Part shown: in pieces, positions 3-61,011 of the stretch | Layout of the letters: each line of letters opens with the position of its first letter | Position numbering within the stretch: the stretch's first letter is position 1 | Source of the DNA: an uncultured Gammaproteobacteria bacterium | GTDB taxonomy: Bacteria; Patescibacteriota; Microgenomatia; JAMCZE01 | Assembly (NCBI GenBank): GCA_964609775.1 | Contig: CAZSSJ010000002.1 | Span: forward strand, 19,260-83,259 | Length of the DNA: 64,000 nt | Direction of reading: 5' to 3' | Notes under the pieces: model-generated | What the model saw: only the letters and a program-made list of their open reading frames with translations | Told to the model about the DNA's origin: nothing | The model's database searches: none | Made by a program: the position numbers and the translations under genes

Positions 3-398
3 GACGTTATCGAACATTTTACCGACCCGGTTTCGGAAATTACAAAAGTTTATCGCACCCTAAAAAAGGGCGGAGTTTTCGCTTTTTCCACCGTCGACCC
101 TGAGAGTCTAACGGCTAAAATTAGGGGGAGTAAGTGGCCCTGGTATATGGAAATGCACCGAGTCTTATTAAGCCGGCCGGTCATTGAACGCTATCTTCGA
201 CAGTCGGGATTTAAAACAGTCTTTTTTAGGTCACATTGGCGTTTTTTTTCGTTAGGTTATGCTGCCACCAGGTGGGAAACTATCAGTCCCACACTTGCTC
301 GAATTTTGACCAGCGCAGTTAAGATTATGCACCTACAGAAAGTCTTAGTGCCGTTTTATGCTAACGATCTCTACGACTGCTATGCGTTTAAGTAGCCA
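3..398 (+). CDS. class I SAM-dependent methyltransferase, C-terminal fragment (5' end lies outside the window)
   Basis: Frame-3 translation from nt 3 gives DVIEHFTDPVSEITKVYRTLKKGGVFAFSTVDPESL...; this is the post-motif-II/III region typical of Methyltransf_11/23 enzymes; the open frame runs to the window edge. Confidence 0.5.
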
Positions 399-1947
399 CC
401 AGCCAAAGCCACTGTCTCTAATTATCCTGGTAACCGTTCTCCTTGCGGCCTTCTTCCTTCGCACCTGGCCGACTCTGAGTGACACCACCCATTTTTCCTT
501 TGATCAGGGCCTGGACATGATCATGGCCAAACTGTTGATCGTCGATCACCAGATCAACTTAATCAGTCGCCACAGTGGACTTCAGGGCGTCTTGATGGGC
601 CCCCTCTGGACTTATTTTCTGGCCACCCCTTTTGCCCTTTCAGGTGGTCACCCCTCCGGCAACGTCATCTTCCTGTCTGTTTTTAATCTGGTCACCTCTG
701 TTCTGGCAACTGTGCTGGTCGGCCGGAAATTCGGCTTGACTGCCGGAGTTGTTACCGGACTTTTTTTTCTGTTCTCACCCTCCTTCATCACCGGTTCTCA
801 AGTAGTCCTTAGTCCTTATCCTCTAATACCCTTATTTATTTTTTTCCCCCTACTTGCCCACGAAACCCTAGTTAACAAAAGCAGTCGTTTCGCCTGGCTT
901 CTCATGCTGCTCTTGGGACTATACTTTCAATTCGAAGTCGGCTTTGCCATTTTTGCCCTTCTCGCTTTTGTTGTCCTTTTTGTTTTTTTCCACTCGTGGT
1001 GGCTTTTTAAAAAGCGGTCATTCTGGGCAGGCTGTGGGCTTTTTGTCTTGACATTTTTGCCCCAGATCCTTTTTGACCTTCGCCACCAATTTCTGATAAC
1101 CAGCGGTTTGTTAGCCTACTTTACTGGCAGTAATACTAGTCTTTACCAGAAGTCAGCTCCACTCATCATTCGCCTCGCTCAGCGATTATATTCATTCTAT
1201 GAAGACGCGACCGCAATGGCATTTTTTGGCCATTGGTCGGTGAATATTGCTCTTCTTCTTCTGGTGGTTTCCGGCTGGATAGTCGCTCTAAAGCATGACG
1301 CAAAAACCCATCGGAAATTTTTGCAAATGATCCTTTTGACATTGGCGTCTTTTTTTATCGGTTTTACCCTTTATCCTGGTCCGATTTGGGGTTGGTATCG
1401 AATTGGCCTACCGGCAATCTACATCTTTCTTGTTTCCATACCAACTGGCGTCCTTTGGCAGAGAATGTATCGTCTTCGGCCGTTAATTCTGATCGTTCTA
1501 ATCGCACTATTTTTGACTGGCGTCAAACCCTGGACTCTCTGGCACCTATATAAAAATCCAGGTGTTGGCGGAGTGGGGACACTCAATAATCAAAAAAAAG
1601 TCATCGACTACGTTTATTCTCAGGCAGAGGGAAAGCCGTTCAACTATCTCGTCTATACCCCGCCGGTCTATGACTACATCTGGCAATATGACTTTTGGTG
1701 GTACGGAAGACAAAAATATGGCTATCTTCCGACAAATTGGCAAATGAGTGTGCCCCTATTGGGAATCGGGGAACAATCCAAACCTCCTGCCACCAAAGAA
1801 CCTTTCTTTCTCATTATTGAGCCAAATACCGACCACCCCGACGAATCCGTCAATTGGAAGAAGACTTTAAAACTAGAGCCAGCAGATTCAAAAGCTACTC
1901 TTCCCGGAGGAATTATCGTCGAAAGTCGGCAAGGCGACAATTTATGA
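358..1947 (+). CDS. polytopic membrane protein, GT39/PMT_2-like putative glycosyltransferase (start could be 382)
   Basis: At least 10 hydrophobic helices are followed by a soluble C-terminal domain (…YVYSQAEGKPFNYLVYTPPVYDYIWQYDFWWYGRQKYGY) that resembles the C-terminal domains of the GT39-like paralogues downstream. Confidence 0.4.
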   Translation: MLTISTTAMRLSSHQPKPLSLIILVTVLLAAFFLRTWPTLSDTTHFSFDQGLDMIMAKLLIVDHQINLISRHSGLQGVLMGPLWTYFLATPFALSGGHPSGNVIFLSVFNLVTSVLATVLVGRKFGLTAGVVTGLFFLFSPSFITGSQVVLSPYPLIPLFIFFPLLAHETLVNKSSRFAWLLMLLLGLYFQFEVGFAIFALLAFVVLFVFFHSWWLFKKRSFWAGCGLFVLTFLPQILFDLRHQFLITSGLLAYFTGSNTSLYQKSAPLIIRLAQRLYSFYEDATAMAFFGHWSVNIALLLLVVSGWIVALKHDAKTHRKFLQMILLTLASFFIGFTLYPGPIWGWYRIGLPAIYIFLVSIPTGVLWQRMYRLRPLILIVLIALFLTGVKPWTLWHLYKNPGVGGVGTLNNQKKVIDYVYSQAEGKPFNYLVYTPPVYDYIWQYDFWWYGRQKYGYLPTNWQMSVPLLGIGEQSKPPATKEPFFLIIEPNTDHPDESVNWKKTLKLEPADSKATLPGGIIVESRQGDNL

Positions 1948-4010
1948 TCGGTGACTTCCTGCCACTGCAAACAAATCTTTTACCCTATTGGTTTTTTCCC
2001 TGGAACACTAATTCCTGGTCAGGCTTTACTCCCTTTATTTTCCACAAGGAACTATTAGCTATCGACGCTCTGCGCCAGATTTTTGTCTGGAAAGAATTTG
2101 CTTTTTCCCAAATCAGACTAGGTGGGTGGCCGCTCTGGAATCCCTACAGTTTTTCCGGTCAGCCGCTTTTGGCCAATTTCCAATCCTCGGTTTTCTATCC
2201 GTTGTCTTGGTTTTTTATGTTTCTGCCGCCCATGATTGCCTGGGCGGCTTATGTTTTTAGTCAGCCGCTCCTTTTAGTCACTTTTATGTTCTTCTGGATG
2301 CGACCAAAAGTGGGTGCCGTTGCCGCCCTTTTTGCCGCCCTCGCCCTTGCAACGGCCAGTTTTTTTGCCACCCGCTATTTCTGGGGAGTCTACGTTCATT
2401 CGCTGTTATGGATTCCTCTGGGGTTAGGCCTGATTGACCGCTACAAAGAAGCCAAAATCAAAACATCATCTTTCGTCGCCTCTTTTTCCCTGGTTTGTGT
2501 CTTAACGGTTCTGGGTGGTTATCCTCAGTTTGGCTTGTACGCCATTGCCCTTTTGGGAGCGTACTATTTGTATATTTTTGGCAAAAAGCGCCTGCTCCTC
2601 TTTCTCCTTTCCCTGATTTTGGCCTTGTTAATTTCCGCCGTCCAGTTAATCCCAACAGCCGAACTATACCGCTATTCGCTTCGTGAGGGAACTGCCTCAG
2701 CCCGGACCTTTAGCGATTCCCTCTTGTCTCCGAAATACCTTGCTACCATAGTTTACCCCGACATGTTTGGCAGTCCGGCAGTTAATGACTACACTGGAGG
2801 CAAAGACTACTCTGGTGTCAACGGCTATTTTGGCGTCGTCCCCTTTCTTCTGGCTTCGGGTGCTGCTATTTTCTTACGAAGGGACAGACAAGTTAGGTTT
2901 TGGATCGCCGTTGGAGCATTGGGGCTACTTCTTGCCTACGACAATCCTTTTGCTCGGCTACCTCAGGTGTTGCCCTTGCCCATCATAAGCAGCGGGAATG
3001 CGTGGCACAACCTTTTCTTTTTTCAGTTTGCCGGTGTCGTATTAGCCACAATTCTACTTACCAGGTTACCAAAGAGAGCCATTCTCATCTGTCTCCTGTT
3101 GACAACCTTCTTAGGCTTCTATTATTCACTGAAAGTGTCACCCTTCGGACAGACCAAATATTTTTATCCTCCCCACCCTCTTCTTTCTTGGCTAAGGCAA
3201 AATGCTGGCCTAGATCGGTTTTATGGTTATCGCAGTTCCCACTTTCTTTCTAATCTTTCCACCTACTATCGCATCTATAGTCCCGAGGGCTATGACAGTC
3301 TTTGGCCGTCTTGGTACGGAGAGTTACTTTCCTCCGCTGACAGAGGTAAAGTTCCTCCGGAAGTAAATCGGGCGGATGTCTCCGTGACTGATTGGGACAC
3401 TTCCTACCGGCGTAAATTGCTAAATCTTCTGGGGGTCAAATATTTTTTAGACAAATCTGATAAACCCGGCGGCGACCAAGGTCCAAACCTGGCCAAGTAC
3501 CCGGCCGGGCAATTTGTCTTAAGGAAACAATGGGGAGAAGTGTCCATCTATGAAAACAAAGAGGCCTTGCCGAGAGCTTTTTTGGCAGACGGCGTCATCT
3601 CTGCCCCAAAATCGGAAGTCATCGAGAAAATCTATTCTTTGCCCTCGCTTCGGACCATCATCTTGGATTCACCACCCGGCCTGGGGTCAAAAAAACTGAC
3701 CACCGGATCAGCGAGTATTAAAAAATATCTTCCCAATGAGGTAATCGTGACCACCAATTCCCCTGGTAATTCCCTCCTCTTTTTATCCGATACCTACTTC
3801 CCCGGTTGGGATGCTTTCGTAGACGGCCACAAAGCAAAAATCCTTCGGGCTGACTATGCCTTTCGGGCAGTCCCTGTTCCTCCCGGAAAAAATGAAGTAA
3901 GATTCATATATCAACCAAAATCATTTTTTCTTGGGATTTCTATGAGTTTATTAGGGAGCGCGATCTGGCTATGGCTGTTGTTAAAAAATTTTTTCAAGAA
4001 AACTGGCTAG
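1945..4010 (+). CDS. YfhO-family membrane glycosyltransferase (GT-C), paralogue 1
   Basis: Contains FFPWNTNSW…WPLWNPYSFSGQPLLANFQSSVFYP and the C-terminal …LFLSDTYFPGWDAFVDGHKAKILRADYAFRAVPVPPGKNEVRFIYQP; these are signature YfhO (PF09586) blocks. Confidence 0.75.
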
Positions 4011-6325
4011 TCATCTTTGCTCTGGGTGTCTCCAATCTTGTTTCTTTTTGGCAATTCTACCTTAAGGGTTTGTTACCCTTTCCCGGGGACCTTCTAGTTT
4101 CCTTTTTCTTTCCTTGGAACTCTGGAGGGTTTGTGGGCTTTGATTCCTGGACCACCCACAAGGAATACATCGCCTCCGACGCTCTCCGTGCCCTTTTCCC
4201 CTGGAAGGTCGAAGTCATCCGTCAATTCTTAAGCGGCAATTTTCCTTTGTGGAACCCCTTCAACTTTGCTGGTACACCGCTTCTGGCTGATTTCCAGTCC
4301 GGAGCCTTTTTTCCCACTAATCTTCTTTACGCCTTTCTGCCTCCTCTCACCGTCTGGATTCTCCAAGTGCTAGTTCTCTTGAGTCTGTTTGCCTTTTTTT
4401 CCTATCTGTTCCTGCGTGCCCTCAAACTCTCACCACTTGCCAGTGCTTTTGGAGCTGTTGTTTTGTCGAATTTACCCTATTTGGTCAACTGGCACGAGAT
4501 CCTCGTCGTGACGCAAAGTGCCCTCTTCTTGCCTCTGGATTTGTACCTACTTGAGAAATTTGCTCAAACAAAAAAAACTATTTATCTTTTTTTTCTGCCC
4601 CTTTTTTTGGCCTTCGCAATTTTTGCTGGCCATCCCCAGACAATCATTATGGTCTTCTTTCTCATCGGAAGTTATGCTCTTTTCCGCCGCTTGTCTTTGG
4701 GCAGAATTTTCCTAATTTTCGTAATCTCACTTCTTTTGGGTGCTGTCCAGTTGTTGCCGTCCTGGCAGTTTTATGAATTCTCGGCCCGGGAAGCAGGAGA
4801 CACGGCTAAACTTTTCCTTGACCACCTCTTCCCGTGGCGAAACGTAATAACCGCCCTAGCTCCGGATTTCTTTGGCAATCCGGTGACCGGAAACTTTTGG
4901 GGGTGGGATTATCACAACTCTCTTGCTTATATTGGTGTGACCGCTTTGTTCCTGGCCCTGTTTTCGTTCTTTTGGCAGTCCAGGAGAAGAGAGGTTGGCT
5001 TTTTTGCCCTGCTGGCACTTATTGGCTTGTTGCTGGCCACCTCTCCACTGGCCAACATTTTTCTCTTCTTTAAAATCCCGATTCTCTCCACCGGCATTGC
5101 CGCCAGGAATATTTTTTTCTGGCAGTTTTCTTTGGGAGTTCTCTCCGCTTTTGGTTTGGACTATCTCCTAAATAAGGTCCGACAAAGCAGGTCTCGGTGG
5201 CATTTTGCCCCCCTAATATTTCTTCTAGTTTTATATCTACTGCTTTGGGTTGTTGTCCTCACAAGCTCTTCCCCGGAGTTTCTTATAAGTCGCCATAATC
5301 TGATTCTCCCCACGGCCATCTTTATCCTGACAGCCATCCTGATTCTCGGCGTCATTGTCCAGCCAAAAATAGGAAAATATCTTCTCTTTGTGCTTTTAGC
5401 ATTGGCAATCTTTGAACAGGGGCGCTATTTTAATAAAATCGAACCCTTCGCTAGCCCCGCCTTTGTCTTTCCCGACCACCCGGTCCTGACTTTTTTGCAG
5501 GAAAATGCCGGAACCAACCGCTTTATCGGAGCAGGGACAGCCAAAATTGATAGCAACTTTGCCACCTACTACCGCATTTTTGACCCCCAGGGCTATGACC
5601 CACTCTATCTTCTTCGCTATGGCCAGCTGCTCGCGGCCTCAAAAAATGGCGGTAAAAAAGCGCCTGTCATCTCCCGGGCTGATGCGATGATCGCCAATTT
5701 GGACCGAAATGATGGCTTTAAAGACCGCTTACTCGATATTTTGGGAGTCAAATACGTCCTCGATAATGAAAATATGTCTGTCGCCAGAGACTGGGAACCG
5801 GGGACTCTTGAGACTGCAAACAACCGCCATCTGCTTGTTTGGCAGCAAGAGAACAAGTGGAAAATTTACGAGCGACAAACCGCCCTCCCCCGAACCTTTT
5901 TGGCCGGAAGCTATGAAGTTGCCTCCTCTGATGAGGCAATTTTGGCACGTCTCTTTGATCCAGACTTTGCTGCTCAAGACAAAATTATCTTGGAAAAAGA
6001 TCCCGGTTTTCCAATCACCAATCAAGGCTCTGCCGAGGCAGTAATCACTCATTATTCTCCCAATACCGTCACGATTCAGACCCGTTCCGACCACCCTCGG
6101 CTGCTTTTTCTTTCGGATAATTACTATCACGGTTGGCTAGCAACCCTTGACGGCCAAAAGGCGGAGATTTTTCGGGCTAACTACACTTTTCGCGCCGTTG
6201 CCGCCCCTTCCGGATCGCACGTGGTGGAATTTAGATATAGTCCGGAGTCATTTCGCCTTGGACTAGTTGTCAGCGTTCTGGGTTTGCTGCTATGGCTAAA
6301 ATTTTTGCGACCAACAAGAAGCTAA
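3971..6325 (+). CDS. YfhO-family membrane glycosyltransferase, paralogue 2
   Basis: FPGDLLVSFFFPWNSGGF…FPLWNPFNFAGTPLLADFQSGAFFP; C-terminus …YYHGWLATLDGQKAEIFRANYTFRAV. Confidence 0.75.
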   Translation: MAVVKKFFQENWLVIFALGVSNLVSFWQFYLKGLLPFPGDLLVSFFFPWNSGGFVGFDSWTTHKEYIASDALRALFPWKVEVIRQFLSGNFPLWNPFNFAGTPLLADFQSGAFFPTNLLYAFLPPLTVWILQVLVLLSLFAFFSYLFLRALKLSPLASAFGAVVLSNLPYLVNWHEILVVTQSALFLPLDLYLLEKFAQTKKTIYLFFLPLFLAFAIFAGHPQTIIMVFFLIGSYALFRRLSLGRIFLIFVISLLLGAVQLLPSWQFYEFSAREAGDTAKLFLDHLFPWRNVITALAPDFFGNPVTGNFWGWDYHNSLAYIGVTALFLALFSFFWQSRRREVGFFALLALIGLLLATSPLANIFLFFKIPILSTGIAARNIFFWQFSLGVLSAFGLDYLLNKVRQSRSRWHFAPLIFLLVLYLLLWVVVLTSSSPEFLISRHNLILPTAIFILTAILILGVIVQPKIGKYLLFVLLALAIFEQGRYFNKIEPFASPAFVFPDHPVLTFLQENAGTNRFIGAGTAKIDSNFATYYRIFDPQGYDPLYLLRYGQLLAASKNGGKKAPVISRADAMIANLDRNDGFKDRLLDILGVKYVLDNENMSVARDWEPGTLETANNRHLLVWQQENKWKIYERQTALPRTFLAGSYEVASSDEAILARLFDPDFAAQDKIILEKDPGFPITNQGSAEAVITHYSPNTVTIQTRSDHPRLLFLSDNYYHGWLATLDGQKAEIFRANYTFRAVAAPSGSHVVEFRYSPESFRLGLVVSVLGLLLWLKFLRPTRS

Positions 6326-15767: not shown

Positions 15768-15770
15768 TCT

Positions 15771-18378: not shown

Positions 18379-18380
18379 CT

Positions 18381-19187: not shown

Positions 19188-19273
19188 TCATCATCTTCGA
19201 ATTTGCAACAGTTTTGATGATTAATACACATCGAAATGCGGTGAACGCATAATATTTACCTTATGATGGGTAT

Positions 19274-22557: not shown

Positions 22558-23237
22558 AACTTTCCATCATCGTCCCAGCATATAACGAAGAAAAAACCAT
22601 TACTAAAGTCATCGATAAGTTATTGCGACTAAAAATCCGTGGTTGGCACAAAGACGTAATTGTCGTTGACGATGCTTCAACCGATCAAACACTCCAGCTT
22701 TTAAAAAACTACCGGGGAAAAATTACCCTCATCCATCACTTAGCCAACCGCGGAAAAACGGCGGCCATAAGGACTGCTGTTCGTCAGACAAGCGGTGATT
22801 ACATCATCATTCAGGATGCCGATCTCGAGTATGATCCCAAGGATATTCCCCTTCTGATTCGCGCTCTCGGTGATAGTAAAGACGCAGTTGTCTTTGGCTC
22901 CCGATTTGCAACGTCAAAGTATGTCGACACTGTCTTTGGTCACAAATTCGGCAACAAGTTGCTGACTCTTCTGGCAAATTTGCTCTACAGGTCAGACATT
23001 TCAGACATGGAAACTTGTTACAAACTCATTCCGGGTCCATTTCTTCGAAGCATCACCCTACAATCTGACCGTTTTGGTTTTGAACCGGAAATTACGGCCA
23101 AGGTGCTTCGAAGTGGGAGAAAAATCAAGGAAGTGCCTATTTCCTATGTCAAAAGATCAGTCACCGAAGGAAAGAGTATCCGTTGGTGGCGCGACGGCTG
23201 GGCCACGGTAGCCATACTGATTCGCTATCGTTTATGA
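22554..23237 (+). CDS. GT2, dolichyl/polyprenyl-phosphate sugar synthase-like (soluble DPM1-type)
   Basis: MKLSIIVPAYNEEKTITKVIDKL…VIVVDDASTDQT…IIIQDADLEYDPKDIPLL. Confidence 0.7.
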   Translation: MKLSIIVPAYNEEKTITKVIDKLLRLKIRGWHKDVIVVDDASTDQTLQLLKNYRGKITLIHHLANRGKTAAIRTAVRQTSGDYIIIQDADLEYDPKDIPLLIRALGDSKDAVVFGSRFATSKYVDTVFGHKFGNKLLTLLANLLYRSDISDMETCYKLIPGPFLRSITLQSDRFGFEPEITAKVLRSGRKIKEVPISYVKRSVTEGKSIRWWRDGWATVAILIRYRL

Positions 23238-24859: not shown

Positions 24860-24866
24860 GACACCC

Positions 24867-26402: not shown

Positions 26403-26820
26403 CTTTCTCTGCACTAAGGACTGGATCCTCGGCGATGTTCCCCTTCAGCTCTGGGAAGCAACCACCGCCGATGGTCCCACCGCGAACGCTTTGCTGACTC
26501 GGTTTCTCCATAATAAGCCGATGTTTTATTTGGACAATTTTCTCCGCTGCTATCTGTCCTATCTTTCGGCAGACTTTTTGGTCAAAGCCTTCTCTCTCTT
26601 AGGATTAGGACTTTTCATTTTCGGAGTCTACCAAGCCATCCGACAGCGAAGAAAATGGCTGTTAAGCATTGTTCTAATGACCCCGTTGTTCCCCCTTTTT
26701 CAATTTCCCGCGGCTAACTTAGCCCAGGGAGTTCTTCTTTATGGTTCACAATTAGCCCTGATCTTGTTTGGTCTCCAACAACTCATTAAAATTCTAATAC
26801 AAAAATTCCGTGCGCCTTAA
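26371..26820 (+). CDS. hypothetical small membrane protein (two predicted TM helices); this ORF is the only one filling an otherwise empty 408-bp gap
   Basis: The ORF spans the gap exactly; hydrophobic stretches AFSLLGLGLFIFGVYQAI and LLSIVLMTPLFPLFQF…LALILFGL; I recognise no family. Confidence 0.3.
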   Translation: MMLPFASMNFNFLCTKDWILGDVPLQLWEATTADGPTANALLTRFLHNKPMFYLDNFLRCYLSYLSADFLVKAFSLLGLGLFIFGVYQAIRQRRKWLLSIVLMTPLFPLFQFPAANLAQGVLLYGSQLALILFGLQQLIKILIQKFRAP

Positions 26821-28399
26821 GCTACTTTTAATCAGCATAGTTCTCTTAGCCGCCATTCTCCGGCTCTATCGTTTGGCCAATGCCCCCCCCAGTCTCTACT
26901 GGGACGAAGCCTCAATTGGCTATAACGCCTACAGTATTGCCCAAACACTTCGCGACGAGCACGGCGAATTTTTGCCTCTGACGCGTTTCATCGCTTTTGG
27001 TGACTATAAACCACCGGGCTACATCTACGCTGCTGCTCTCTCCGTTAAGCTTTTTGGGCCAACGGAGTTTGTAGTCCGTCTACCCTCCGCTGCAGCAGGA
27101 ACTCTTTTGGTTCTCGTCAGTTTTTATCTCGCCCGAATGCTTACAGGAAACGCCAAACTAGGCCTGGTGACGGCCGCGCTTTTGGCTGTTTCTCCCTGGG
27201 CCCTCCAATTTTCCCGGGGCGCTTTCGAAGCCAATTTAGCCACTTTGTTTTCCTCTGCCGGACTCTACTTTTTTGTCCGAACCATTCGCACAAAAACACT
27301 TGCTTCGGGCATCTCTAGTGCCGTTTTTTTCGCGCTTTCCCTGTACACTTTTAATTCCCACCGCGTCTTTGTCCCAGCAGTCATTGGTGCTCTGGGTCTA
27401 ATTTACTTTCGGGAGATTTGGCGCAGCAGGGGACAATGGTTAGTTTTTTTGTTAGCTCTACTTCTTCTGCTTGCTCCCCTAATCCCTCATCTGCTTTCCC
27501 GCGAGGGACAGCTTCGCTTCTATGAAGTTACTTGGCTAAACGATCTCGCCCCCATTGAACTTTCTAATTCGCGGACGGCTGTCGACGGTAACACCTGGTG
27601 GTCAGGATTAATCCACAACCGGCGGATCATTTTTTCCCAAGAGTTTCTGAAGCACTACACCGACCATTTCCGGGCTGAATTTTTGTTCTTCTCCGGGGAC
27701 GTCAATCCCCGGCTGTCGATCCAAACTGTCGGCGAAATGTACTGGCTGGATCTACCACTCCTCTTGATTGGAGTCTTCATCTTGGTCAAAAAGCGCCGCC
27801 GGGCCGCTCTTGTTCTCCTCGCCTGGGTTGTCCTTTCTCCTGTCCCCGCCGCCACCGCCCGCGAAACCCCCCACGCCCTACGCATCCTCCACATCCTGCC
27901 CTCATTGCAAATCGTCGCTGCCTTTGGCCTTTTGACCTTTTGGAAACTAGATTCCTTTAAAAAAATCCGTCTGCTTCTCGTCCCCATTTATGGTCTTTTT
28001 ATCATCATGTATCTTCATGACTATTACGTTCACTACCCGAAATTCTATTCCTCCGACTGGCAGTACGGCTATAAAGAAATGGTAGGTTTTGTTTCTTCAC
28101 TCCAGGACAAGTACGACCACATCAGTGTTACTGACACTTTGGGCAGACCCTACATCTATCTACTGTTCTATCAAAAATACCCCCCCGAAAAATACTGGGC
28201 AAACCGTCAGGTACGCCGCGATTGGTATGGCTTTTGGTACGTCGACGGCTTTGACAAATATACATTTGGAGGTCCGTTGCCTCCTGGCCGTTCGCTCATC
28301 GTTTCCGGTCCGCAGCCAATTCCCGGCAATTGGCAGCTCCTGAAGTCCGTCACTGACCCGCAAGGAAACACCGTCTTTCAAATAAGCGAAAAGGACTAA
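26810..28399 (+). CDS. GT39/PMT_2-family glycosyltransferase, paralogue
   Basis: LRLYRLANAPPSLYWDEASIGYNAYSIAQTLRDEHGEFLPLTRFIAFGDYKPPGYIYA…FVVRLPSAAAG; C-terminus WQYGYKEMVGFV…GRPYIYLLFYQKYPP. Confidence 0.65.
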   Translation: MRLKLLLISIVLLAAILRLYRLANAPPSLYWDEASIGYNAYSIAQTLRDEHGEFLPLTRFIAFGDYKPPGYIYAAALSVKLFGPTEFVVRLPSAAAGTLLVLVSFYLARMLTGNAKLGLVTAALLAVSPWALQFSRGAFEANLATLFSSAGLYFFVRTIRTKTLASGISSAVFFALSLYTFNSHRVFVPAVIGALGLIYFREIWRSRGQWLVFLLALLLLLAPLIPHLLSREGQLRFYEVTWLNDLAPIELSNSRTAVDGNTWWSGLIHNRRIIFSQEFLKHYTDHFRAEFLFFSGDVNPRLSIQTVGEMYWLDLPLLLIGVFILVKKRRRAALVLLAWVVLSPVPAATARETPHALRILHILPSLQIVAAFGLLTFWKLDSFKKIRLLLVPIYGLFIIMYLHDYYVHYPKFYSSDWQYGYKEMVGFVSSLQDKYDHISVTDTLGRPYIYLLFYQKYPPEKYWANRQVRRDWYGFWYVDGFDKYTFGGPLPPGRSLIVSGPQPIPGNWQLLKSVTDPQGNTVFQISEKD

Positions 28400-29778
28400 T
28401 GACCAGATTTCTTTTGACTGTCAGTTTTGTCATTTTGACTCTCCTCTCTTGGGTCCTTCTGTTGCGTGACGAGCAAGCAATCACCGCCTTGGGTGACTTC
28501 TCTTTGCATTTGGGAACAACCCTAACCTCCTTTCGTCAAACCCTGCTTCATTATGGCCTCAACAGCCTCGTCAGCCTCCTTTTTGCCATGTGTGTCATCA
28601 TTGCTTTTGGGGCATACTTTCAAGCCTTGCGTCAAAAAATTTCTTTAAACCAAGCGTTGCTTTTCTCCGCCATCTTTCCGGCCATTGTCTTTTTCTCCTA
28701 CCCCGCTTTGTCTACGGACATCTTTGACTATATCCTTTCTGACCGTCTCGCCGTAATTTTTGGCGCCAATGTCTGGACAACGCCCCCCTCGGCTTTGATT
28801 CCTCCCGCCGATCCCTACTTTCAACTCACCAGTTGGGGATCCCAAGTAAATCCCTATGGTCCACTCAATCAGTTTTTCTATTTGCTTGCCGGGCTGGCCT
28901 CGATGAATAATTTCTGGCTAAGCTTAGCTGCCCATAAACTCTTGCCTTTAACTTTTCTTTTGGCTTCTTTAGTTGTCGTCTCTAAAACGTTACAAAAATA
29001 TTATCCTCAGTCACAAAGTCAAGGCATCATCCTTCTCTTTTGGAATCCTCTGTTCATTCTAGAAACAGCCGGTTCCGGCCATAATGATATCTTGTGGATC
29101 TTTTTTGCCCTAGCCGCTATCTATTTTTGGCTGGGAAAAAAATTTTTTATTTCCGGCTTGCTTTTAGCTCTAGCCGTCCAGGTCAAATTCATTCCCGTCA
29201 TCCTCTTTATATTCTTGCTGGCCTCGTTAACAAGCAAGGAACGGCAAGGTGCTTTGCAATTTGCCGGTGCCTTTATAACAGTAAACATCCTGGCCTTTTT
29301 ATACTTAGGCTCAGCGGTGTTTCCCTTTCTAACTAGGCTGGTTCTGGGAGCAAGCATCTATTGGCAATCGCTGCCACAACTTGTCCATCCTCTCTACGGC
29401 CAGGAGAAAATCTTCTTCACCACCTCCTTCTTACTATTATTAACGTCCGCTCTTATCCTTGTTCTCAAACAACGAATTACTCCGCTGCTGGGATACGTAG
29501 TGGTCATGTTCTTCTACCTACTCCTCCTGACCTCCGTCTATTGGAACTGGTACATCCTCTGGATCCTCTTCCTAATCCCTTTTCTGGGCAAAACCCGTTT
29601 GACTCGTCCGATCCTCATCTTTTCTGCCACCTCCCTTCTTGCCTACCCGCTCTATTGGCTGTCGCTCCGCTTTGGTTTCGGCAGTCTCTCCTGGCAGGTT
29701 ATAATATATCTGTTTATTGCTTTGCCCCCACTGGCAAGCTTTTTCCATGAGAAAATTATTCGACGACCACAAGACTGA
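28399..29778 (+). CDS. polytopic membrane protein, DUF2029/GT87-like putative glycosyltransferase
   Basis: YPALSTDIFDYILSDRLAVIFGANVWTTPP in the first extracytoplasmic loop; about 11 TM helices. Confidence 0.35.
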   Translation: MTRFLLTVSFVILTLLSWVLLLRDEQAITALGDFSLHLGTTLTSFRQTLLHYGLNSLVSLLFAMCVIIAFGAYFQALRQKISLNQALLFSAIFPAIVFFSYPALSTDIFDYILSDRLAVIFGANVWTTPPSALIPPADPYFQLTSWGSQVNPYGPLNQFFYLLAGLASMNNFWLSLAAHKLLPLTFLLASLVVVSKTLQKYYPQSQSQGIILLFWNPLFILETAGSGHNDILWIFFALAAIYFWLGKKFFISGLLLALAVQVKFIPVILFIFLLASLTSKERQGALQFAGAFITVNILAFLYLGSAVFPFLTRLVLGASIYWQSLPQLVHPLYGQEKIFFTTSFLLLLTSALILVLKQRITPLLGYVVVMFFYLLLLTSVYWNWYILWILFLIPFLGKTRLTRPILIFSATSLLAYPLYWLSLRFGFGSLSWQVIIYLFIALPPLASFFHEKIIRRPQD

Positions 29779-31252
29779 CCTTCTTGTTTTTGGGGGATTA
29801 ATTCTTGCCTACTTTCTCACCCGGCTTCCCCGCTTGGATCTCATCCCAATCTTCACTGACGAGGCCATCTATCTTCGCTGGAGTCAGATCATGGCCTATG
29901 ATGCCTCGCTGCGCTATCTGCCTCTGGTCGACGGTAAACCACCACTTTTTATGTGGGCTACCTCTATTGTTCTTAAACTGTTTCCGAGTCTTGACCCACT
30001 GCTTTCTCTCAGATTAACTTCGGTCGGGGGTGGCCTCTTTTCCATGGCCGGGATAATTTTTACCTCGTATGTGTTTTTTCGCAATAAACGCATTTCTTTG
30101 CTGGCGGCCTTGCTCTATCTTGTCGTCCCCTTCACATTTTTTTATGACCGCTTTGGTTTGGCCGATAGCCTTTTGGCCGCCTTTGGAGTCTGGAGTCTTG
30201 GGTTGGGGGCTTTGCTTGTCCAGTCGATCCGCCTTGACGTGGCACTGATACTTGGGACGGCGATTGGCTTAGGACTTTTGACGAAAACCCCGGCGCTATT
30301 TTTCCTCGTCACTTTGCCGTTGCAACTCCTCCTCTTTAATTTCAAAACCAGTGGATGGAAGATTCGACTTGTGAAGTTATTTCTCCTGTTTTTATTGGTC
30401 GTAATAATTTCCCAAGCCATCTTTTCGATCCTTCGGCTTTTCCCCTTGTTTCATATGATTTCTCAAAAAAACTTGGAATTTATCGTTACTCCGGCAGAAT
30501 TTCTCGCCCGGCCCTTCGAATTCTTTTTTAACAATCTCAAAACATTGCTCACCTGGGAAGTTGGCTACCTCACTGCCCCTGTCGCTTTGACCATCGCTTT
30601 TGCCTTTCTTAGAGGCCAGGCCGTTAAGCAAAATCTCATTCTGGCAGCCATCTTTCTCATCCATCTGCTTTATATGTCCACCTTTAACAAATCAATTTTT
30701 CCCCGTTTCTTGCTCACTTTCACTCCGGGCTTGTTGGTTTTGGCGGCCGTCGGGCTTGACCAAATGTCAACTCGTCTTCGTCCGTCATTACTCGTCTTGG
30801 TCTTTGTCCTCGTCCTGGCGCTCCCAGTTTATACCGATTTCAAACTTCTAACCGATCCTCCGACTGCTCCAATTCCCGATGGCGATTCCAAGCAGTACAT
30901 CAACGCCTGGCCGGCCGGCTATGGAGTCAAGGAAATTCGCCAGTTTTTGGCCCGGGAAAGTAGCCAATATCCAAAAGTGACTATCGGCACCGAAGGCACC
31001 TTCGGGCTTATGCCCTATGCCCTGCAGCTCTATCAAAAAGACTACCCTAATGTCGAAATCAAAGACTATTGGCCCTTGGGAGAGACAGTGCCGGCAGCAT
31101 TATTGGAAGCCTCGGCCAACCACCCCACCTACTTCATTATCTACCAGCGGCCAGATGTGCCCCCGAACTGGAAGCTGCGTTTGGTCGCCTCCTTCCAGCA
31201 AGGACGAAGTAATGACTATCTCCGACTCTATCAGATTTTACCCGAAGATTGA
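29747..31252 (+). CDS. GT39/GT83-like (ArnT-type) membrane glycosyltransferase, divergent
   Basis: LTRLPRLDLIPIFTDEAIYLRWSQIMAYDASLRYLPLVDGKPPLFMW: a DE motif loop followed by TM helices, then a C-terminal soluble domain. Confidence 0.5.
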   Translation: MRKLFDDHKTDLLVFGGLILAYFLTRLPRLDLIPIFTDEAIYLRWSQIMAYDASLRYLPLVDGKPPLFMWATSIVLKLFPSLDPLLSLRLTSVGGGLFSMAGIIFTSYVFFRNKRISLLAALLYLVVPFTFFYDRFGLADSLLAAFGVWSLGLGALLVQSIRLDVALILGTAIGLGLLTKTPALFFLVTLPLQLLLFNFKTSGWKIRLVKLFLLFLLVVIISQAIFSILRLFPLFHMISQKNLEFIVTPAEFLARPFEFFFNNLKTLLTWEVGYLTAPVALTIAFAFLRGQAVKQNLILAAIFLIHLLYMSTFNKSIFPRFLLTFTPGLLVLAAVGLDQMSTRLRPSLLVLVFVLVLALPVYTDFKLLTDPPTAPIPDGDSKQYINAWPAGYGVKEIRQFLARESSQYPKVTIGTEGTFGLMPYALQLYQKDYPNVEIKDYWPLGETVPAALLEASANHPTYFIIYQRPDVPPNWKLRLVASFQQGRSNDYLRLYQILPED

Positions 31253-32910
31253 AAGTTATGACCCGCAAGATCTGGATCATCCTCCTGAGCATTGTCCTTC
31301 TGGGTGCTTTCCTTCGTTTTTACCTGCTTGGCAAAATCCCTGCCAGTCTTGACTGGGATGAAGCCTCCATCGGCGACAATGCCTATTCACTTTTAAAAAC
31401 CAGCAGCGATGAATACGGTAACCGCTTCCCGCTCTCCATTCGCTCTTTCAACGACTACAAGCCCCCCCTCTATGTCTATGCCACTATTCCCAGCATTGCC
31501 CTTTTTGGCAAGAATGAATTTGCCATCCGTTTCCCTTCCGCTTTCGTCGGTACCCTTTCAATTTTAGCAACTTTTCTGCTGATTCAACAACTTCTCAACT
31601 TCCGAAGGGAGAAAAATTCATTGCATTATTGCATTATTGCATTATTGATTTCTTTCCTCTTGGCCGTCTCTCCCTGGCACATCCAGTTTAGCCGGCTCGC
31701 CTTTGAAGCCAATCTCGCCCTCTTTTTTAGTCTCTGCGGGTGGCTGTTCCTCACTAAATTCATCTCCCAGGGGAGATGGTGGCCCATTATTCCATCGACA
31801 CTAAGCTACGTGCTTGCCCTCTATAGTTATCACAGCGCCCGCCTGGTAGTTCCTCTTTTTCTTTTAGGAATCGGATTCTACTATCACCGAATATTATTTG
31901 CCCGGATTAAAACGGTCCTTGTTGGCCTGGGTCTTGCTATAGTCCTCCTCCTGCCTTTAGCCCTGTCCACACTTCAGACGACAAGCCTGCAAGCCCGCTG
32001 GGGCGAGGTGAGCATTTTTTCTTCAGCGGGACTGCGCGATACCGTCAAAGTCACCCTCGACGCCCAGCAAGAATATTGGCGGCAAGACAAGCTCCAGGGC
32101 GATCGCCTGGCCCGGCTGATCCACACTAAATTTATCTCCTACAGCCGACTGCTGGCCAAAAACTACCTCGACCACTTCAATTTCAGTTTTCTTTTCCTTG
32201 AAGCCGATGGCAACGGTCGGCACCACGCTCCGGGGATGGGCCTTCTCTATCTTGTTGAGGCGCCGTTCCTCCTCTATGGAGGCTATCTGCTTCTTAGGAG
32301 GCGCCCGACCTACTCATTTTTTCTTGTGTGGGCTTTTCTCGTCGCCCCCTCGGCTGCCAGCCTGACTGCTGATACCCCCCACGCCGTCCGCTCCCTATCC
32401 TTCCTCCCCAGCTTTCAAATCATCACCGCCTTCGGCCTTTACAGTCTGTTGTCAAAAGTCAAAACTCTTTTCCGAGGGCCACTGCTACTTTTGATCAGTC
32501 TTCTTTTCCTGGCTAATTTTTACTACTTTTTCCACCAATATTTTGTCCATTTCGGAATCGAGCACGCTTCTTCTTTTCAATACGGCTACAAGGAGATGGT
32601 CGCCAAAGTCCGCGCCCTAAGTGGAGAATTTGACCAGATCTATGTCACTGTGAAATATGACCAACCCTACATCTATTTTCTTTTCTATGGCCACTCCGAT
32701 CCCAGAATAAAAAATGACGGGACCTTCCAACTAAGCTTTGATAAATACCGTTTTGTCAATTGGGGAGAACTGACAAACGAGCAAAAATCTAATTTGAGCC
32801 CGAAAATCTTGGCCGTCCACGCCCCCGATGACTTTTTTAGCCCCCATGTCATTCTTGACAAGATCTATTACCCGGACGGGAAAGTTGTTTTCGTCCTCAG
32901 CCACATGTGA
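31249..32910 (+). CDS. GT39/PMT_2-family glycosyltransferase, paralogue
   Basis: LRFYLLGKIPASLDWDEASIGDNAYSLLKTSSDEYGNRFPLSIRSFNDYKPPLYVYA…FAIRFPSAFVG; C-terminus FQYGYKEMVAKV…DQPYIYFLFYGHSDP. Confidence 0.65.
   Translation: MKVMTRKIWIILLSIVLLGAFLRFYLLGKIPASLDWDEASIGDNAYSLLKTSSDEYGNRFPLSIRSFNDYKPPLYVYATIPSIALFGKNEFAIRFPSAFVGTLSILATFLLIQQLLNFRREKNSLHYCIIALLISFLLAVSPWHIQFSRLAFEANLALFFSLCGWLFLTKFISQGRWWPIIPSTLSYVLALYSYHSARLVVPLFLLGIGFYYHRILFARIKTVLVGLGLAIVLLLPLALSTLQTTSLQARWGEVSIFSSAGLRDTVKVTLDAQQEYWRQDKLQGDRLARLIHTKFISYSRLLAKNYLDHFNFSFLFLEADGNGRHHAPGMGLLYLVEAPFLLYGGYLLLRRRPTYSFFLVWAFLVAPSAASLTADTPHAVRSLSFLPSFQIITAFGLYSLLSKVKTLFRGPLLLLISLLFLANFYYFFHQYFVHFGIEHASSFQYGYKEMVAKVRALSGEFDQIYVTVKYDQPYIYFLFYGHSDPRIKNDGTFQLSFDKYRFVNWGELTNEQKSNLSPKILAVHAPDDFFSPHVILDKIYYPDGKVVFVLSHM
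31620..31643. repeat. octanucleotide tandem repeat (ATTGCATT) x3 plus a degenerate fourth copy, in frame inside the CDS
   Basis: Read directly: aattc attgcatt attgcatt attgcatt attgattt; encodes …LHYCIIALLI…. Confidence 0.8.
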
Positions 32911-34478
32911 CTAGGAAAGTAGTTTTTTTCTTAATCATCGTTCTTGCCGCCCTGCTGCGCCTGGCCTATCTGGCAGGAGCCCCCCCGAGTCTCAATTGGG
33001 ACGAGGTCTCGGTCGGTTGGAACGCCTATTCTCTTTTAACAACCAGCCGTGACGAATATGGCCAGTCCTTTCCTCTCTCCATTCGCTCCTTCAACGACTA
33101 TAAACCTCCCCTCTACACCTACGCGACCGCTGCCGCCATGGCTCTTCTTGGCAAAACTGAGATTGCCGTCCGGTTGCCTTCCGCTCTGGCCGGCCTTTTA
33201 ACGGTGGTTTTAATTTTTTTCCTTGGTCGAGTGAGCGGGCTGGGTGGCAAAGCGAACTTCCGTTTTGCCTATCTCTCCGCTTTCCTTCTGTCCGTCTCCC
33301 CCTGGCACATCCAGCTTAGCCGTATTGCCTTTGAAGCCAGTCTGGCCCTCTTTTTTTTCCTCTTTGGACTGGCCTTGATACTTTTCTATTTCCGTCACCC
33401 CACCACAAAGCTGCTGGCCATCCTCAGCGCTACCGGTTTTGTTCTGTCAACTTACGCTCACCATAGTGTCAAGATATTTCTACCGTTGTTTACCCTCCTC
33501 TTTGCTGCGGCTTACCGTCAACAAATTACTAAAAACTGGCCCAAACTACTTCCTGCCCTTGTCATTGGCGCGATCCTTCTTCTACCTCTAGGAAGAAACA
33601 TGCTCTACACCTCTGGTCAAGCCACCCGGGCACTTACGGTGAGCATTTTCGCCCCGGAAAACCAATTTCATTTCCAGGGAAAATCAACGCTGCAAGTTTT
33701 GACGGAAAACTATCTGTCTCATCTTGATCCCGCCTTCTTGTTCTTTGGCCGGGGTGACAATCCCCGGCATCACGCCCCAGATACAGGTGTTGTCCTCCTC
33801 TGGACTGCCCCCTTTATCATTCTTGGTCTAATTTACCTCATCAGACACCGACCAAAATATCTCGCGCTGCTCCTAATTTGGTTTGTCCTATCGCCCGTCC
33901 CGGCGATTCTCTCCATCGACAATCCCCACGCCAGCCGCTCCTTTCTCAGCCTCCCCATCTACGTTTTTCTCACTGCGCTGGGAATACTGTTTCTTGCCAA
34001 GCGAAGAGCGCTTGCCGCTTTGGGCATAGGGTTGCTGTTGGTGTTTAATCTGCTCTATTTCTTCCATCAATACTTTAGCGATCTGTCGATAAGAGATGCC
34101 CCGGCTTGGCAGTATGGTTATAAACAGCTTGTCGAACGCCTCGACTCTGTCTCTTCTAGTCGCTACCGGAAAATTTATGTCTCCACTGCCTATGACCAAC
34201 CCTACATTTATTTTCTTTTCTATGGCCACTCCGACCCATGGATAAAAAATGACGGCAGTTTTTCCCAAGCGTTGGGAAAAATCTCTTTTGTCAACTTTAA
34301 AAATTGGAGGCAATCCGATTGGGACGCCCTTGACGCTGACGATCTATTAGTTCTAACTTCAACTGATCCCCAAGATGGCTTAACAATCATTGAGGAGATA
34401 AACTATCCCGATAGTCAGGTTGCTTTTCGAATTACTCAACCAATCTCACGCCATGGCGTAATTTTGATTACACCCTAG
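32907..34478 (+). CDS. GT39/PMT_2-family glycosyltransferase, paralogue
   Basis: LRLAYLAGAPPSLNWDEVSVGWNAYSLLTTSRDEYGQSFPLSIRSFNDYKPPLYTYA…; C-terminus WQYGYKQLVERL…DQPYIYFLFYGHSDP, closely related to the preceding gene. Confidence 0.65.
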   Translation: MTRKVVFFLIIVLAALLRLAYLAGAPPSLNWDEVSVGWNAYSLLTTSRDEYGQSFPLSIRSFNDYKPPLYTYATAAAMALLGKTEIAVRLPSALAGLLTVVLIFFLGRVSGLGGKANFRFAYLSAFLLSVSPWHIQLSRIAFEASLALFFFLFGLALILFYFRHPTTKLLAILSATGFVLSTYAHHSVKIFLPLFTLLFAAAYRQQITKNWPKLLPALVIGAILLLPLGRNMLYTSGQATRALTVSIFAPENQFHFQGKSTLQVLTENYLSHLDPAFLFFGRGDNPRHHAPDTGVVLLWTAPFIILGLIYLIRHRPKYLALLLIWFVLSPVPAILSIDNPHASRSFLSLPIYVFLTALGILFLAKRRALAALGIGLLLVFNLLYFFHQYFSDLSIRDAPAWQYGYKQLVERLDSVSSSRYRKIYVSTAYDQPYIYFLFYGHSDPWIKNDGSFSQALGKISFVNFKNWRQSDWDALDADDLLVLTSTDPQDGLTIIEEINYPDSQVAFRITQPISRHGVILITP

Positions 34479-36075: not shown

Positions 36076-36081
36076 TCGTTT

Positions 36082-39206: not shown

Positions 39207-39212
39207 CAACCA

Positions 39213-39971: not shown

Positions 39972-39972
39972 C

Positions 39973-42100: not shown

Positions 42101-42103
42101 CAC

Positions 42104-49349: not shown

Positions 49350-49355
49350 AAACCT

Positions 49356-51367: not shown

Positions 51368-51379
51368 CGCCATCTGATA

Positions 51380-55242: not shown

Positions 55243-55256
55243 TATACTTTCTAAAG

Positions 55257-56462: not shown

Positions 56463-56471
56463 AATAGATTT

Positions 56472-57284: not shown

Positions 57285-57293
57285 ACTTTTGCT

Positions 57294-59520: not shown

Positions 59521-59532
59521 TTTGCCATCCCT

Positions 59533-60258: not shown

Positions 60259-60276
60259 TTACTTGAGTTAATACCT

Positions 60277-60915: not shown

Positions 60916-60966
60916 GTTCGAGGCGTTGCGAGAGAAAAGAAACTGGCGAAGCCAAAACGAAAGAGA

Positions 60967-60986: not shown

Positions 60987-61011
60987 AGTTTCATACAATT
61001 AAAATAATCAG

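Follow-up and report, generated by a model that had tools for sequence, protein, structure and literature searches.

Why would a bacterium with a small genome keep about 27 genes for polytopic glycosyltransferases of the GT-C type side by side in a single locus, and what could such a set of enzymes build? The question is raised by a DNA stretch of 64,000 nucleotides (the whole of which is referred to as the window; contig CAZSSJ010000002.1, positions 19,260 to 83,259) from an uncultured bacterium of the Microgenomatia. Positions 358-34478 of the window contain 23 consecutive open reading frames (ORFs; g1-g23) on the + strand, with no credible gene of the - strand among them. The host had been expected to be a small-genome organism, and it is a member of the Microgenomates within the Candidate Phyla Radiation (CPR), with a genome of roughly 1 Mb as inferred from relatives. 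The surface composition of CPR/Patescibacteria is essentially unknown, yet it must mediate attachment to host cells; the array suggests an unexpectedly elaborate sugar coat in these poorly known groundwater bacteria.

The array may be regarded as the middle section of a superlocus for cell-envelope glycans that exceeds 74 kb and lies almost wholly on one strand, a view on which the evidence is about evenly poised. The explanation preferred here, held with a comparable, middling degree of confidence, is that of an expanded multi-component glycosylation system, in which the GT-C enzymes would stepwise assemble and branch one envelope glycan or lipoglycan outside the membrane. More than 74 kb devoted to glycan synthesis corresponds to several per cent of a genome of ~1 Mb (the size inferred from relatives). 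The whole genome of Mycobacterium tuberculosis encodes about 16-17 GT-C enzymes, i.e., fewer than this array.

Composition and identity of the GT-C block

The ORF survey of the window yields 79 ORFs of at least 100 aa, and the long, non-nested ones form a near-continuous series on the + strand. With start codons matching the gene calls of public assemblies, 4-nt start/stop overlaps are present at 10 of the 22 junctions within 358-34478, while the sole gap longer than 10 bp (19188-19273) lies just before g13. The description of this region in the original prediction as some 22 back-to-back, co-directional and overlapping genes thus holds, although its boundaries were drawn too narrowly: the same-strand array reaches 10 kb or more past the upstream edge of the window and, in the downstream direction, to ~63015. 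Altogether, it includes ~27 GT-C genes within 74 kb, of which 21 lie inside the window.

Within the block, Pfam, paralogy and fold evidence identifies 16 full-length polytopic GT-C genes and one GT-C fragment (g18), which comes close to the proposed number of at least 17 such proteins; the full-length genes account for 28.0 of 34.1 kb (82%). They comprise four members of YfhO, two of PTPS_related/COG5617, eight PMT_2-like proteins, one GT87/MptA_B protein and one representative of the g11 family, so that the earlier family counts (four YfhO, two COG5617-type, six to eight PMT_2-like) agree with both Pfam and BLASTP. Also as foreseen, other glycan genes are interleaved with them: a Wzx-type flippase, a GtrB/ArnC homologue (g10, which matches GtrB end to end), three further genes of glycosyltransferase family 2 (GT2) and one of family 4 (GT4), recognized by Pfam. 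The genes of the block are as follows; all lie on the + strand, and bit scores marked as sub-gathering fall below the Pfam gathering score.

382..1947, +: g1, polytopic PMT_2-like GT-C of a second PMT_2-like family (PMT_2 18.3 bits, sub-gathering; ~11 hydrophobic segments)
1944..4010, +: g2, YfhO-family GT-C (PF09586 67.3 bits; 33-39% identity with g3 and g4; 4-nt overlap with g1)
3971..6325, +: g3, YfhO-family GT-C (PF09586 71 bits; 47% identity with g4)
6292..8616, +: g4, YfhO-family GT-C (PF09586 95 bits; exact match to the NCBI hypothetical protein KKU92446.1)
8613..10103, +: g5, PTPS_related (PF10131/COG5617) GT-C (PF10131 43.6 bits)
10100..11749, +: g6, PMT_2/PMT GT-C (PMT_2 41.4 bits, PMT 27 bits; D-E motif of loop 1 kept)
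11718..13454, +: g7, PTPS_related-type GT-C bearing a (TTATACT)n tract (BLASTP 1e-50 and 3e-56 to g5 and g26)
13432..14877, +: g8, MOP/Wzx-type flippase (Polysacc_synt_3 160.7 bits)
14874..15767, +: g9, GT2 with one C-terminal hydrophobic segment (PF00535 51.6 bits)
15771..16700, +: g10, GtrB/ArnC/PgfS-type polyprenyl-phosphate-sugar synthase (KKU92440.1; matches to 5EKP, ArnC and PgfS)
16645..18378, +: g11, GT-C-fold protein of a family without a Pfam model (KKU92439.1; AlphaFold2 and Foldseek)
18381..19187, +: g12, GT2 (PF00535 46.4 bits)
19274..20350, +: g13, GT4 (Glycos_transf_1 70.3 bits)
20347..22557, +: g14, YfhO-family GT-C (PF09586 79 bits)
22554..23237, +: g15, soluble GT2 similar to DPM1/AglJ/PpgS, candidate polyprenyl-phosphate-hexose synthase (PF00535 115.6 bits)
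23234..24859, +: g16, PMT_2/PMT GT-C of the core paralogue family (PMT_2 58.6 bits, PMT 38.9 bits)
24867..26402, +: g17, PMT_2-type GT-C of the core paralogue family (PMT_2 22.8 bits, sub-gathering)
26392..26820, +: g18, short ORF, probable relic of a PMT_2 paralogue (hhalign, BLASTP)
26810..28399, +: g19, PMT_2/PMT GT-C (PMT_2 61.3 bits, PMT 42.9 bits)
28399..29778, +: g20, GT87/MptA_B-family GT-C (GT87 30.4 bits; precomputed PF26314, MptA_B_family)
29747..31252, +: g21, PMT_2 GT-C (PMT_2 41.8 bits; hhalign 97.9% to the PMT_2 core profile)
31258..32910, +: g22, PMT_2-type GT-C with a (ATTGCATT) x3.5 tract (PMT_2 25.5 bits, sub-gathering; 41% identity with g23)
32907..34478, +: g23, PMT_2/PMT GT-C (PMT_2 38.1 bits, PMT 33.1 bits)

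Family assignments support the view that the membrane proteins of the block are GT-C-type, lipid-carrier-dependent glycosyltransferases, with the putative use of lipid-linked donors deduced from the adjacent GtrB-type and DPM1-like GT2 genes. The Pfam scan of the ORFs places most of the membrane proteins in GT-C and not in transporter families. The gathering score is passed by 11 of the 16 GT-Cs in the block, including the four YfhO genes (67-95 bits against a gathering score of 28.5 bits) and g6, g16, g19, g21, and g23, which exceed it with PMT_2 (with or without PMT); PF02366, the protein O-mannosyltransferase family, is above its gathering score in g6, g16, g19, and g23. Three further proteins (g1, g17, and g22) fall slightly under the score of PMT_2, and the Pfam scan of the block gives no match for g7, g11, and g18. 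In the case of g7, the direct scan is without a match and the precomputed match to PF10131 is weak.

That five of the 16 GT-C candidates miss the gathering score would suit an artefact or misannotation, i.e., a chimeric assembly or a set consisting mostly of transporters; but all five are tied to GT-C families through paralogy or fold. In all-against-all BLASTP, g7 groups with g5 and g26 (1e-50 to 1e-56), while g17 and g22 group with g16, g19, g23, and g6 (27-41% identity; 1e-60 to 1e-107 for g16, g19, and g23), g17 matching g16, g19, g22, and g23 at 1e-62 to 1e-80. The g1 protein clusters with three paralogues encoded upstream, and one of these matches PMT_2 significantly. The four YfhO paralogues are 29-47% identical, and the PTPS_related profile matches the YfhO profile (97.5%, E = 6e-12). 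Searches of PDB sequences with the YfhO and PTPS_related profiles return no matches, and the PMT-type profile finds only ArnT (E = 0.037) and Pmt4 (E = 0.7). A transporter or other non-GT identity is rejected on the evidence of Pfam, of paralogy, and of the predicted structures of g11 and g34 (the latter downstream of the block), each of which was searched for similar folds.

A chimeric misassembly, named by the original prediction as a threat to its proposal, is excluded as well, given that the window recurs with 99.96-100% identity and the same gene order in no fewer than 24 independent contigs, which stem from assemblies in ENA, JGI, Logan, and NCBI that differ in sample and assembler. As the paralogues share only 27-47% identity, they are old, and repeat-induced misassembly is not an issue; a recent tandem duplication as their source is likewise ruled out. 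An artefact of either kind is therefore exceedingly improbable. The exact proteins KKU92446.1, KKU92439.1, and KKU92440.1, together with their neighbours, are deposited on UY21_C0001 (140 kb) of Microgenomates group bacterium GW2011_GWA1_48_10 under the name of hypothetical proteins, except for g10 ('Glycosyl transferase, family 2').

The g11 protein has no match in Pfam, NCBIfam or PDB sequences, and no sequence link to PMT_2. All of its 39 gathered homologues are unannotated and none has a precomputed Pfam domain (28 were aligned); the named ones come from Gottesmanbacteria or Patescibacteria. The family amounts to 2,631 representatives (at 50% identity; E <= 1e-3). In the AlphaFold2 model (predicted local distance difference test, pLDDT, 89.1; predicted template modelling score, pTM, 0.89), the predicted fold is that of GT-C enzymes, revealed by structure alone: the top 29 Foldseek matches in the PDB are all GT-C (AglB at 1.3e-8, STT3, PglB, DPY19, AftA, ArnT, EmbB, and Pmt4), whereas transporters reach a probability of at most 0.15. 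The structure modelling and fold search thus find the GT-C fold for both g11 and g34. A natural 1,639-aa protein (P0150) combines a g8-like Wzx/MOP flippase (residues 15-493; 39% identity to g8, E = 4e-106) with a g11-like GT-C (residues 1065-1455). The linker between its two parts (~570 aa) has no function assigned. Other members of the g11 family, ~1,030-1,160 aa in length, bear unannotated N-terminal domains.

The active site environment is reflected by the conservation of the first loop. Invariant residues follow the first transmembrane segment (TM1) in YfhO (K64, D70, and R73 in all four paralogues), the PMT_2 core group (D31-E32 in six paralogues, just after TM1), PTPS_related (D33), and the g11 family (D67 in loop 1, just after TM1). 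An acidic residue of loop 1 is therefore retained in the four multi-member GT-C families that were examined, to which 14 of the 16 genes belong. Its position matches that of the catalytic residues of GT-C enzymes, so a catalytic role is presumed, and these 14 GT-Cs look catalytically competent.

The short ORF g18 (142-149 aa, three hydrophobic segments) has no Pfam or NCBIfam match. It aligns by hhalign to columns 218-393 of the PMT_2 core profile (87.9%, E = 4e-7) and by BLASTP to residues 242-345 of g19, i.e., to the middle third of the PMT_2 paralogues. Probably it is a decayed fragment of such a paralogue. The alternative of a GtrA-type flippase is ruled out by the same alignment and by the lack of Pfam and NCBIfam matches.

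Occurrence across Microgenomates and variation between copies

When the YfhO alignment is searched against one genome per GTDB species, 364 relatives are found, the closest species representative being 55% identical to the query. The best 80 of the 364 loci, which were used for comparison, come from Levy-, Gottesman-, Woese-, and Shapirobacteria and other Patescibacteria; their ORFs were classified against the window proteins, covering 10 kb on either side of the YfhO match. In the 38 loci that span 20 kb or more, the median is 7 GT-C-like ORFs (range 3-11), and 36 of these loci have five or more GT-Cs; as the loci were picked for holding a YfhO homologue, these figures do not give a genome-wide frequency, which limits the support that they lend to the preferred explanation. 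Of the relatives' GT-Cs, 83% are co-directional with the YfhO match. A recurrent order (GT2, GT87, PMT_2 of the g21 type, YfhO, two PTPS_related, GT2, Wzx, GT2, then a g11-type gene) is present in Levy-, Gottesman-, Woese-, and Shapirobacteria, whereas outside this conserved core the number and order of GT-Cs vary. Given this density and the recurrent core order, dense GT-C arrays are a lineage-wide trait of Microgenomates, which is expanded in the present genome. Similar arrays are carried by many SPIRE/binchicken contigs of metagenome-assembled genomes labelled 'uncultured Gammaproteobacteria'; judged by gene content, these are presumably mislabelled Patescibacteria bins.

Two genes of the block contain tandem repeats that are out of frame or shift the frame when altered:

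12386..12412, +: perfect heptanucleotide tandem repeat (TTATACT) x3.9 inside g7 (Tandem Repeats Finder score 54, 100% match)
31620-31647, +: second perfect, out-of-frame tandem repeat (ATTGCATT) x3.5, with an 8-bp unit, inside g22 (Tandem Repeats Finder)

In the independent assembly ERZ27254754 (L002/L102), which represents the same population, the g7 tract counts x2.9, i.e., one unit fewer, the sequence being otherwise 99.96% identical over 22 kb. Loss of a single TTATACT unit puts g7 out of frame and leaves two ORFs, 256 and 238 aa long. Slipped-strand on/off switching occurs in surface-glycan genes of several pathogens, and the (TTATACT)n tract of g7 is a candidate switch for such phase variation, possibly the first repeat-based one noted for a glycosyltransferase of the CPR.

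These repeats bear on the possibility that the array serves as a repertoire for variation, in which GT-C paralogues are switched by slipped-strand repeats or gained and lost, resulting in differing glycans for phage evasion or host matching. Such a role can be combined with the assembly of a single glycan as well as with the decoration of several acceptors. Besides the one-unit difference in g7 between assemblies of the same population, it could draw on the second perfect repeat in g22, the decayed paralogue g18, the differences in GT-C copy number and order outside the core between relatives, and the lower GC content of the downstream ABC-type cluster, which is typical of exchangeable glycan loci. 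However, the frameshifted tract is the single variant among ~22 contigs covering g7, scans of metagenome contigs for the flank of the g7 repeat returned zero matches, and the g22 tract is invariant in the six contigs that cover it. The paralogues are, moreover, old (27-47% identity), and all of those examined retain the catalytic motif. Variation as the purpose of the array appears improbable on this balance. Some heterogeneity in the population is hinted at by another position: at ~30745 in g21 (loci L099 and L100), a Rifle ANAN16 scaffold has an in-frame 3-bp deletion, and the contig of another sample stops exactly there.

Lipid-linked donors, export and glycan assembly

In the multi-component framework of extracytoplasmic glycosylation, a GT-A enzyme makes a polyprenyl-linked donor (C55-P-sugar), a GtrA- or Wzx-type flippase takes it across the membrane, and a GT-C enzyme transfers the sugar on the outside (PMC8035078, PMC11127046). 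All three components are present in the array. The g10 protein matches the synthase GtrB sll0501 (PDB ID: 5EKP) end to end over residues 4-307 (E = 8e-78) and ArnC at E = 2e-43, ends in a C-terminal transmembrane hairpin, and has PgfS as its best NCBIfam match (249 bits). The soluble g15 resembles AglJ (112.9 bits), PpgS (55 bits), and a dolichyl-phosphate (Dol-P)-hexose transferase (53 bits), all under the equivalog cut-offs, while g30, downstream of the block, reaches 147 bits with PpgS (cut-off 370). Together with g24 and one GT2 upstream of the window, the candidate polyprenyl-phosphate-sugar synthases number ~5. As the flippase, the Wzx-type g8 stands in place of GtrA (PF04138), which has no match on any ORF of the window and is likewise missing from the 10 kb on either side. 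Pfam matches to Wzy_C, Bac_transf and MraY/WecA-type families are absent from the window and from the precomputed hits of the 10-kb flanks, so that a Wzx/Wzy pathway is not indicated.

The arrangement g8-g9-g10-g11 matches the combination of synthase, Wzx/MATE-type flippase and GT-C known from the GacI/J/K/L and GT136 systems (PMC8035078, PMC11127046), and the fusion of a g8-like flippase to a g11-like GT-C in P0150 further links these genes as a module. Compact modules of this kind are open to testing in heterologous hosts.

The ratio of ~5 candidate synthases to ~27 GT-Cs departs from a one-to-one pairing of synthase and GT-C. In Firmicutes, GT-A and GT-C enzymes occur in pairs of ~1:1, with at most ~3 pairs per genome (PMC8035078, Table 1). 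With few donors and many transferases, most of the GT-Cs would differ in acceptor or linkage and act in succession on one growing, branched glycan. According to the proposed mechanism, GT2 enzymes at the cytoplasmic face (g10, g15, g24, g30 with g31, and the upstream GT2) would charge polyprenyl phosphate with sugars taken from nucleotide sugars, and g8 would flip the lipid-linked sugars across the membrane. The ~27 GT-Cs, of at least seven sequence families, would then move the sugars from the lipid donors to an extracytoplasmic acceptor, so that most glycosidic bonds would be formed at the outer face of the cytoplasmic membrane. The glycan might consist of a core common to Microgenomates and of extra branches specific to lineages. 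Its backbone or primer would probably be built in the cytoplasm by GT4/GT2 enzymes and exported by the downstream Wzm/Wzt, and the polymer from that GT4/Wzm-Wzt cluster may be the acceptor for the GT-Cs. Inferences in this scheme are the identity of the donors, the co-transcription of the genes, an acceptor common to the GT-Cs, and the kind of polymer that is finally made.

Multi-component systems share several traits with the array. As in GtrA/B/C, CsbB/GtcA/YfhO, GacI/J/K/L, and the GT136 pentofuranose systems, a GtrB-type synthase (g10) accompanies YfhO/PMT_2 GT-Cs; g8 is akin to GacK or to the MATE flippase of the GT136 systems, and g30 and g31, a soluble GT2 and its small membrane companion, are akin to GacI/GacJ. 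Those systems, however, use one GT-C per module and have no more than ~3 modules per genome, in contrast to 16 GT-Cs in 34 kb and ~27 in 74 kb here, and the array lacks GtrA and adds PTPS_related, GT87/MptA_B, PIG-V-like and two families without a Pfam model.

A parallel for many transferases served by few donors is the synthesis of lipomannan/lipoarabinomannan (LM/LAM) and arabinogalactan in mycobacteria and corynebacteria (PimE, MptA/B/C, Emb/Aft), where many GT-Cs build one glycan from few polyprenyl-phosphate-sugar donors. In the LM/LAM paradigm, cytoplasmic GT-A/B enzymes are followed, after flipping, by GT-C enzymes using polyprenyl-phosphate sugars for elongation and branching (PMC3229680). 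Cytoplasmic GT4 steps come first, and both settings have GT87 and MptA_B members; in the array, these are g20 and an upstream 374-aa gene, whose relation to PimE/MptC (GT87) and MptA/MptB is shown at the level of the family, and GT4 genes are present as well. PpgS (Rv3631) and its small membrane partner Rv3632 supply the GT-C Rv3779 (PMC3485146), and the PpgS-like g30 with the DUF2304 protein g31 shows the same pairing. Unlike the mycobacterial genes, which are dispersed (three are clustered in Micrococcus luteus, PMC3229680), those of the array form a single locus, which is dominated by YfhO and PTPS_related and is hosted by a CPR bacterium whose genome, judged from its relatives, measures roughly 1 Mb. 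The ALG/GPI (glycosylphosphatidylinositol) series of the endoplasmic reticulum lumen (ALG3/9/12/6/8/10; PIG-M/V/B) likewise employs successive GT-Cs with Dol-P-mannose and Dol-P-glucose on one lipid-linked glycan. The array contains the PIG-V-like g29, a PIG-L-like gene, and g34 with its ALG12/ALG9/PimE-like fold; yet it is bacterial and single-locus, no orthologue of the oligosaccharyltransferase (OST) subunit STT3 was identified in it by sequence, and to connect it with a GPI-like anchor would be speculation.

Alternatively, each GT-C or small group of GT-Cs might add single sugars to a different, ready-made acceptor, creating a combinatorial coat; the acceptors could be Ser/Thr-rich S-layer, pilin, and surface proteins, teichoic-acid-like polymers, or peptidoglycan-linked glycans. 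Characterized YfhO/PMT_2 enzymes do act in this way, adding single sugars to lipoteichoic acid, wall teichoic acid, rhamnan, and other polymers (PMC5836110, PMC8035078), and in streptococci, disordered stretches of membrane proteins that are rich in Ser/Thr are glycosylated by GT-Cs (PMC12041528). PgfS, to which g10 has its best match in NCBIfam, belongs to the protein-glycosylation system of Streptococcus mutans, and the score of PF02366 in the four proteins named above points in the same direction. However, ~5 synthases for ~27 GT-Cs are unlike the paired GT-A/GT-C modules of decoration; GT87, MptA_B and PIG-V-type enzymes are chain-building mannosyltransferases in their characterized members (PMC3229680); the conserved order of at least five GT-C families is more typical of a multi-step pathway; and neither the window nor the 10 kb on each side of it encodes a protein that would be a candidate acceptor. 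Decoration of several acceptors is plausible, though less likely than stepwise assembly. Stepwise assembly of one glycan is favoured by the donor ratio, the LM/LAM-type families, the downstream ABC cluster, and the conserved core order, to which the ten 4-nt overlaps in the block may be added. The functional part of the original prediction had suggested a combinatorial surface glycosylation, for example heavy O-glycosylation of S-layer, pilin or cell-wall polymers; the same four points partly disfavour a system that mainly O-glycosylates proteins such as S-layer or pilin.

Several points, in addition to the selection of the comparison loci, weigh against stepwise assembly. The parallel decoration of several acceptors would suit the gene content equally, and the YfhO/PMT_2 enzymes of Firmicutes decorate finished polymers, or proteins (streptococcal Pgf), sugar by sugar. 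The sole clear GtrB homologue among the candidate synthases is g10; as the DPM1/PpgS-like GT2s score far below the NCBIfam cut-offs, their role in lipid-sugar synthesis is putative, and g8 could be a conventional repeat-unit Wzx. Neither an acceptor nor a lipid anchor nor a priming phosphoglycosyltransferase is found in the window or in 10 kb on either side. No Emb/Aft-type arabinosyltransferase is detected by sequence (no Arabinose_trans match). Finally, the promoter and terminator scans of the window give hits near the shuffled background and mostly inside genes, and are uninformative on operon structure.

The statement of the original prediction that no characterized bacterial locus has such a density of these enzymes agrees with the literature searched, in which none is described. 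Within the same literature, works on CPR/Microgenomates together with GT-C, YfhO, PMT or glycosyltransferases describe no such arrays, and a 2024 review of Patescibacteria biology leaves glycans unmentioned. Enzyme classes and the basic mechanism are already known. New are the ~27 one-strand GT-Cs in a genome of ~1 Mb, the lineage-wide arrays, the skewed ratio of donors to transferases, two sizeable GT-C families without a Pfam model, and the candidate phase-variable repeat. A biochemical role is thereby assigned to many 'hypothetical membrane proteins'; membrane-localized 'hypothetical' families are enriched in Microgenomates, according to Méheust et al. (PMC6744442), and the glycan of the array might explain some of them. 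More tentatively, and with considerable doubt, Microgenomates and perhaps other CPR might make a major layer of the envelope, a complex branched lipoglycan or wall polysaccharide, nearly all of it put together outside the membrane by 20-30 clustered GT-Cs with repeat-switched branching, as a second, independent 'mycobacterium-like' factory; at least two of the GT-C families involved are missing from current domain databases. If true, the glycan would rank among the foremost candidates for what attaches these episymbionts to hosts and lets them escape phages.

Regions flanking the block

The 10 kb upstream of the window contain, on the same strand, six GT-Cs (four PMT_2-like of the g1 type, one PMT_2 core-like, and one MptA_B/GT87-like), one GT2, and one methyltransferase. 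The MptA_B/GT87-like gene is the one of 374 aa mentioned above; it has a precomputed PF26314 match, is negative in the direct Pfam scan, and shares 34% identity with g20. Downstream of the block, the following features are present:

34475..35122, -: PaaX_M/Cas2-like domain protein (PF20803 62.8 bits)
35326..47593, +: continuation of the array (g24 GT2, g25, g26 PTPS_related, GT2, GT4, g29, g30, g31, two GT4, g34, g35)
40880-42100, +: g29, PIG-V-like GT-C
42104-43129, +: g30, soluble PpgS-like GT2, and g31, small DUF2304 membrane protein, adjacent to each other
within 35326..47593, +: g35, PMT_2
47590..63015, +: cytoplasmic-assembly/ABC-transporter glycan cluster (Pfam)

The PaaX_M/Cas2-like gene is the only one on the - strand in ~63 kb and converges on g23 with a 4-nt overlap. 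Its product may contain a winged-helix region and might regulate the array.

Five GT-Cs in addition to those of the block are encoded before ~63 kb. Among the products of the continuation, the polytopic g25 has a weak, full-length similarity to the PMT_2 profile, and the polytopic g34 adopts a GT-C fold according to the structure search, near ALG12/ALG9/PimE, with WaaL at a probability of only 0.06. Its family is the second GT-C family without a Pfam model.

The cluster at 47590..63015 encodes a GT2, an enolase-superfamily enzyme, five clear GT4 and one weak GT4-like protein, three methyltransferases, Acyl_transf_3, Wzm, Wzt with Wzt_C, a PIG-L deacetylase, and EamA. Its likeness to the ABC-dependent O-polysaccharide systems of the Escherichia coli O8/O9a type, which applies to this downstream part only, consists in Wzm, Wzt with a Wzt_C-like domain, GT4s, and methyltransferases; in contrast to those systems, the Wzt_C-like domain is sub-gathering (24.1 bits vs. 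a gathering score of 30.4), and cluster and GT-C array form one physical unit. The GC content is 0.39-0.42 at ~50000-62000 and 0.43-0.51 in the GT-C block. This section resembles an exchangeable polysaccharide cluster of the ABC-transporter type, with possible methyl capping.

Two further observations concern the downstream half of the array. The MR_MLE enolase-superfamily gene (48342-49349), situated amid glycosyltransferases, could encode a sugar-acid dehydratase or epimerase for an unusual sugar. The PIG-V-like g29, PIG-L (60277-60915), the acyltransferase (55257-56462), and the GT4s recall the gene set of a GPI-anchor or a glycolipid of the phosphatidylinositol mannoside (PIM) type, as a resemblance only.

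The scans of the window for tRNAs and Rfam elements found none. Positions 63007-63994 and the 10 kb beyond encode a KdsC-like phosphatase, a CMP-sugar cytidylyltransferase, a NeuB-like/AP_endonuc_2 fusion, PhyH, and a protein similar to Kdo-8-P (3-deoxy-D-manno-octulosonate 8-phosphate) synthase. These genes past ~63 kb form a pathway for nonulosonic or ulosonic acids, which is unexpected in a bacterium thought to be devoid of an outer membrane.

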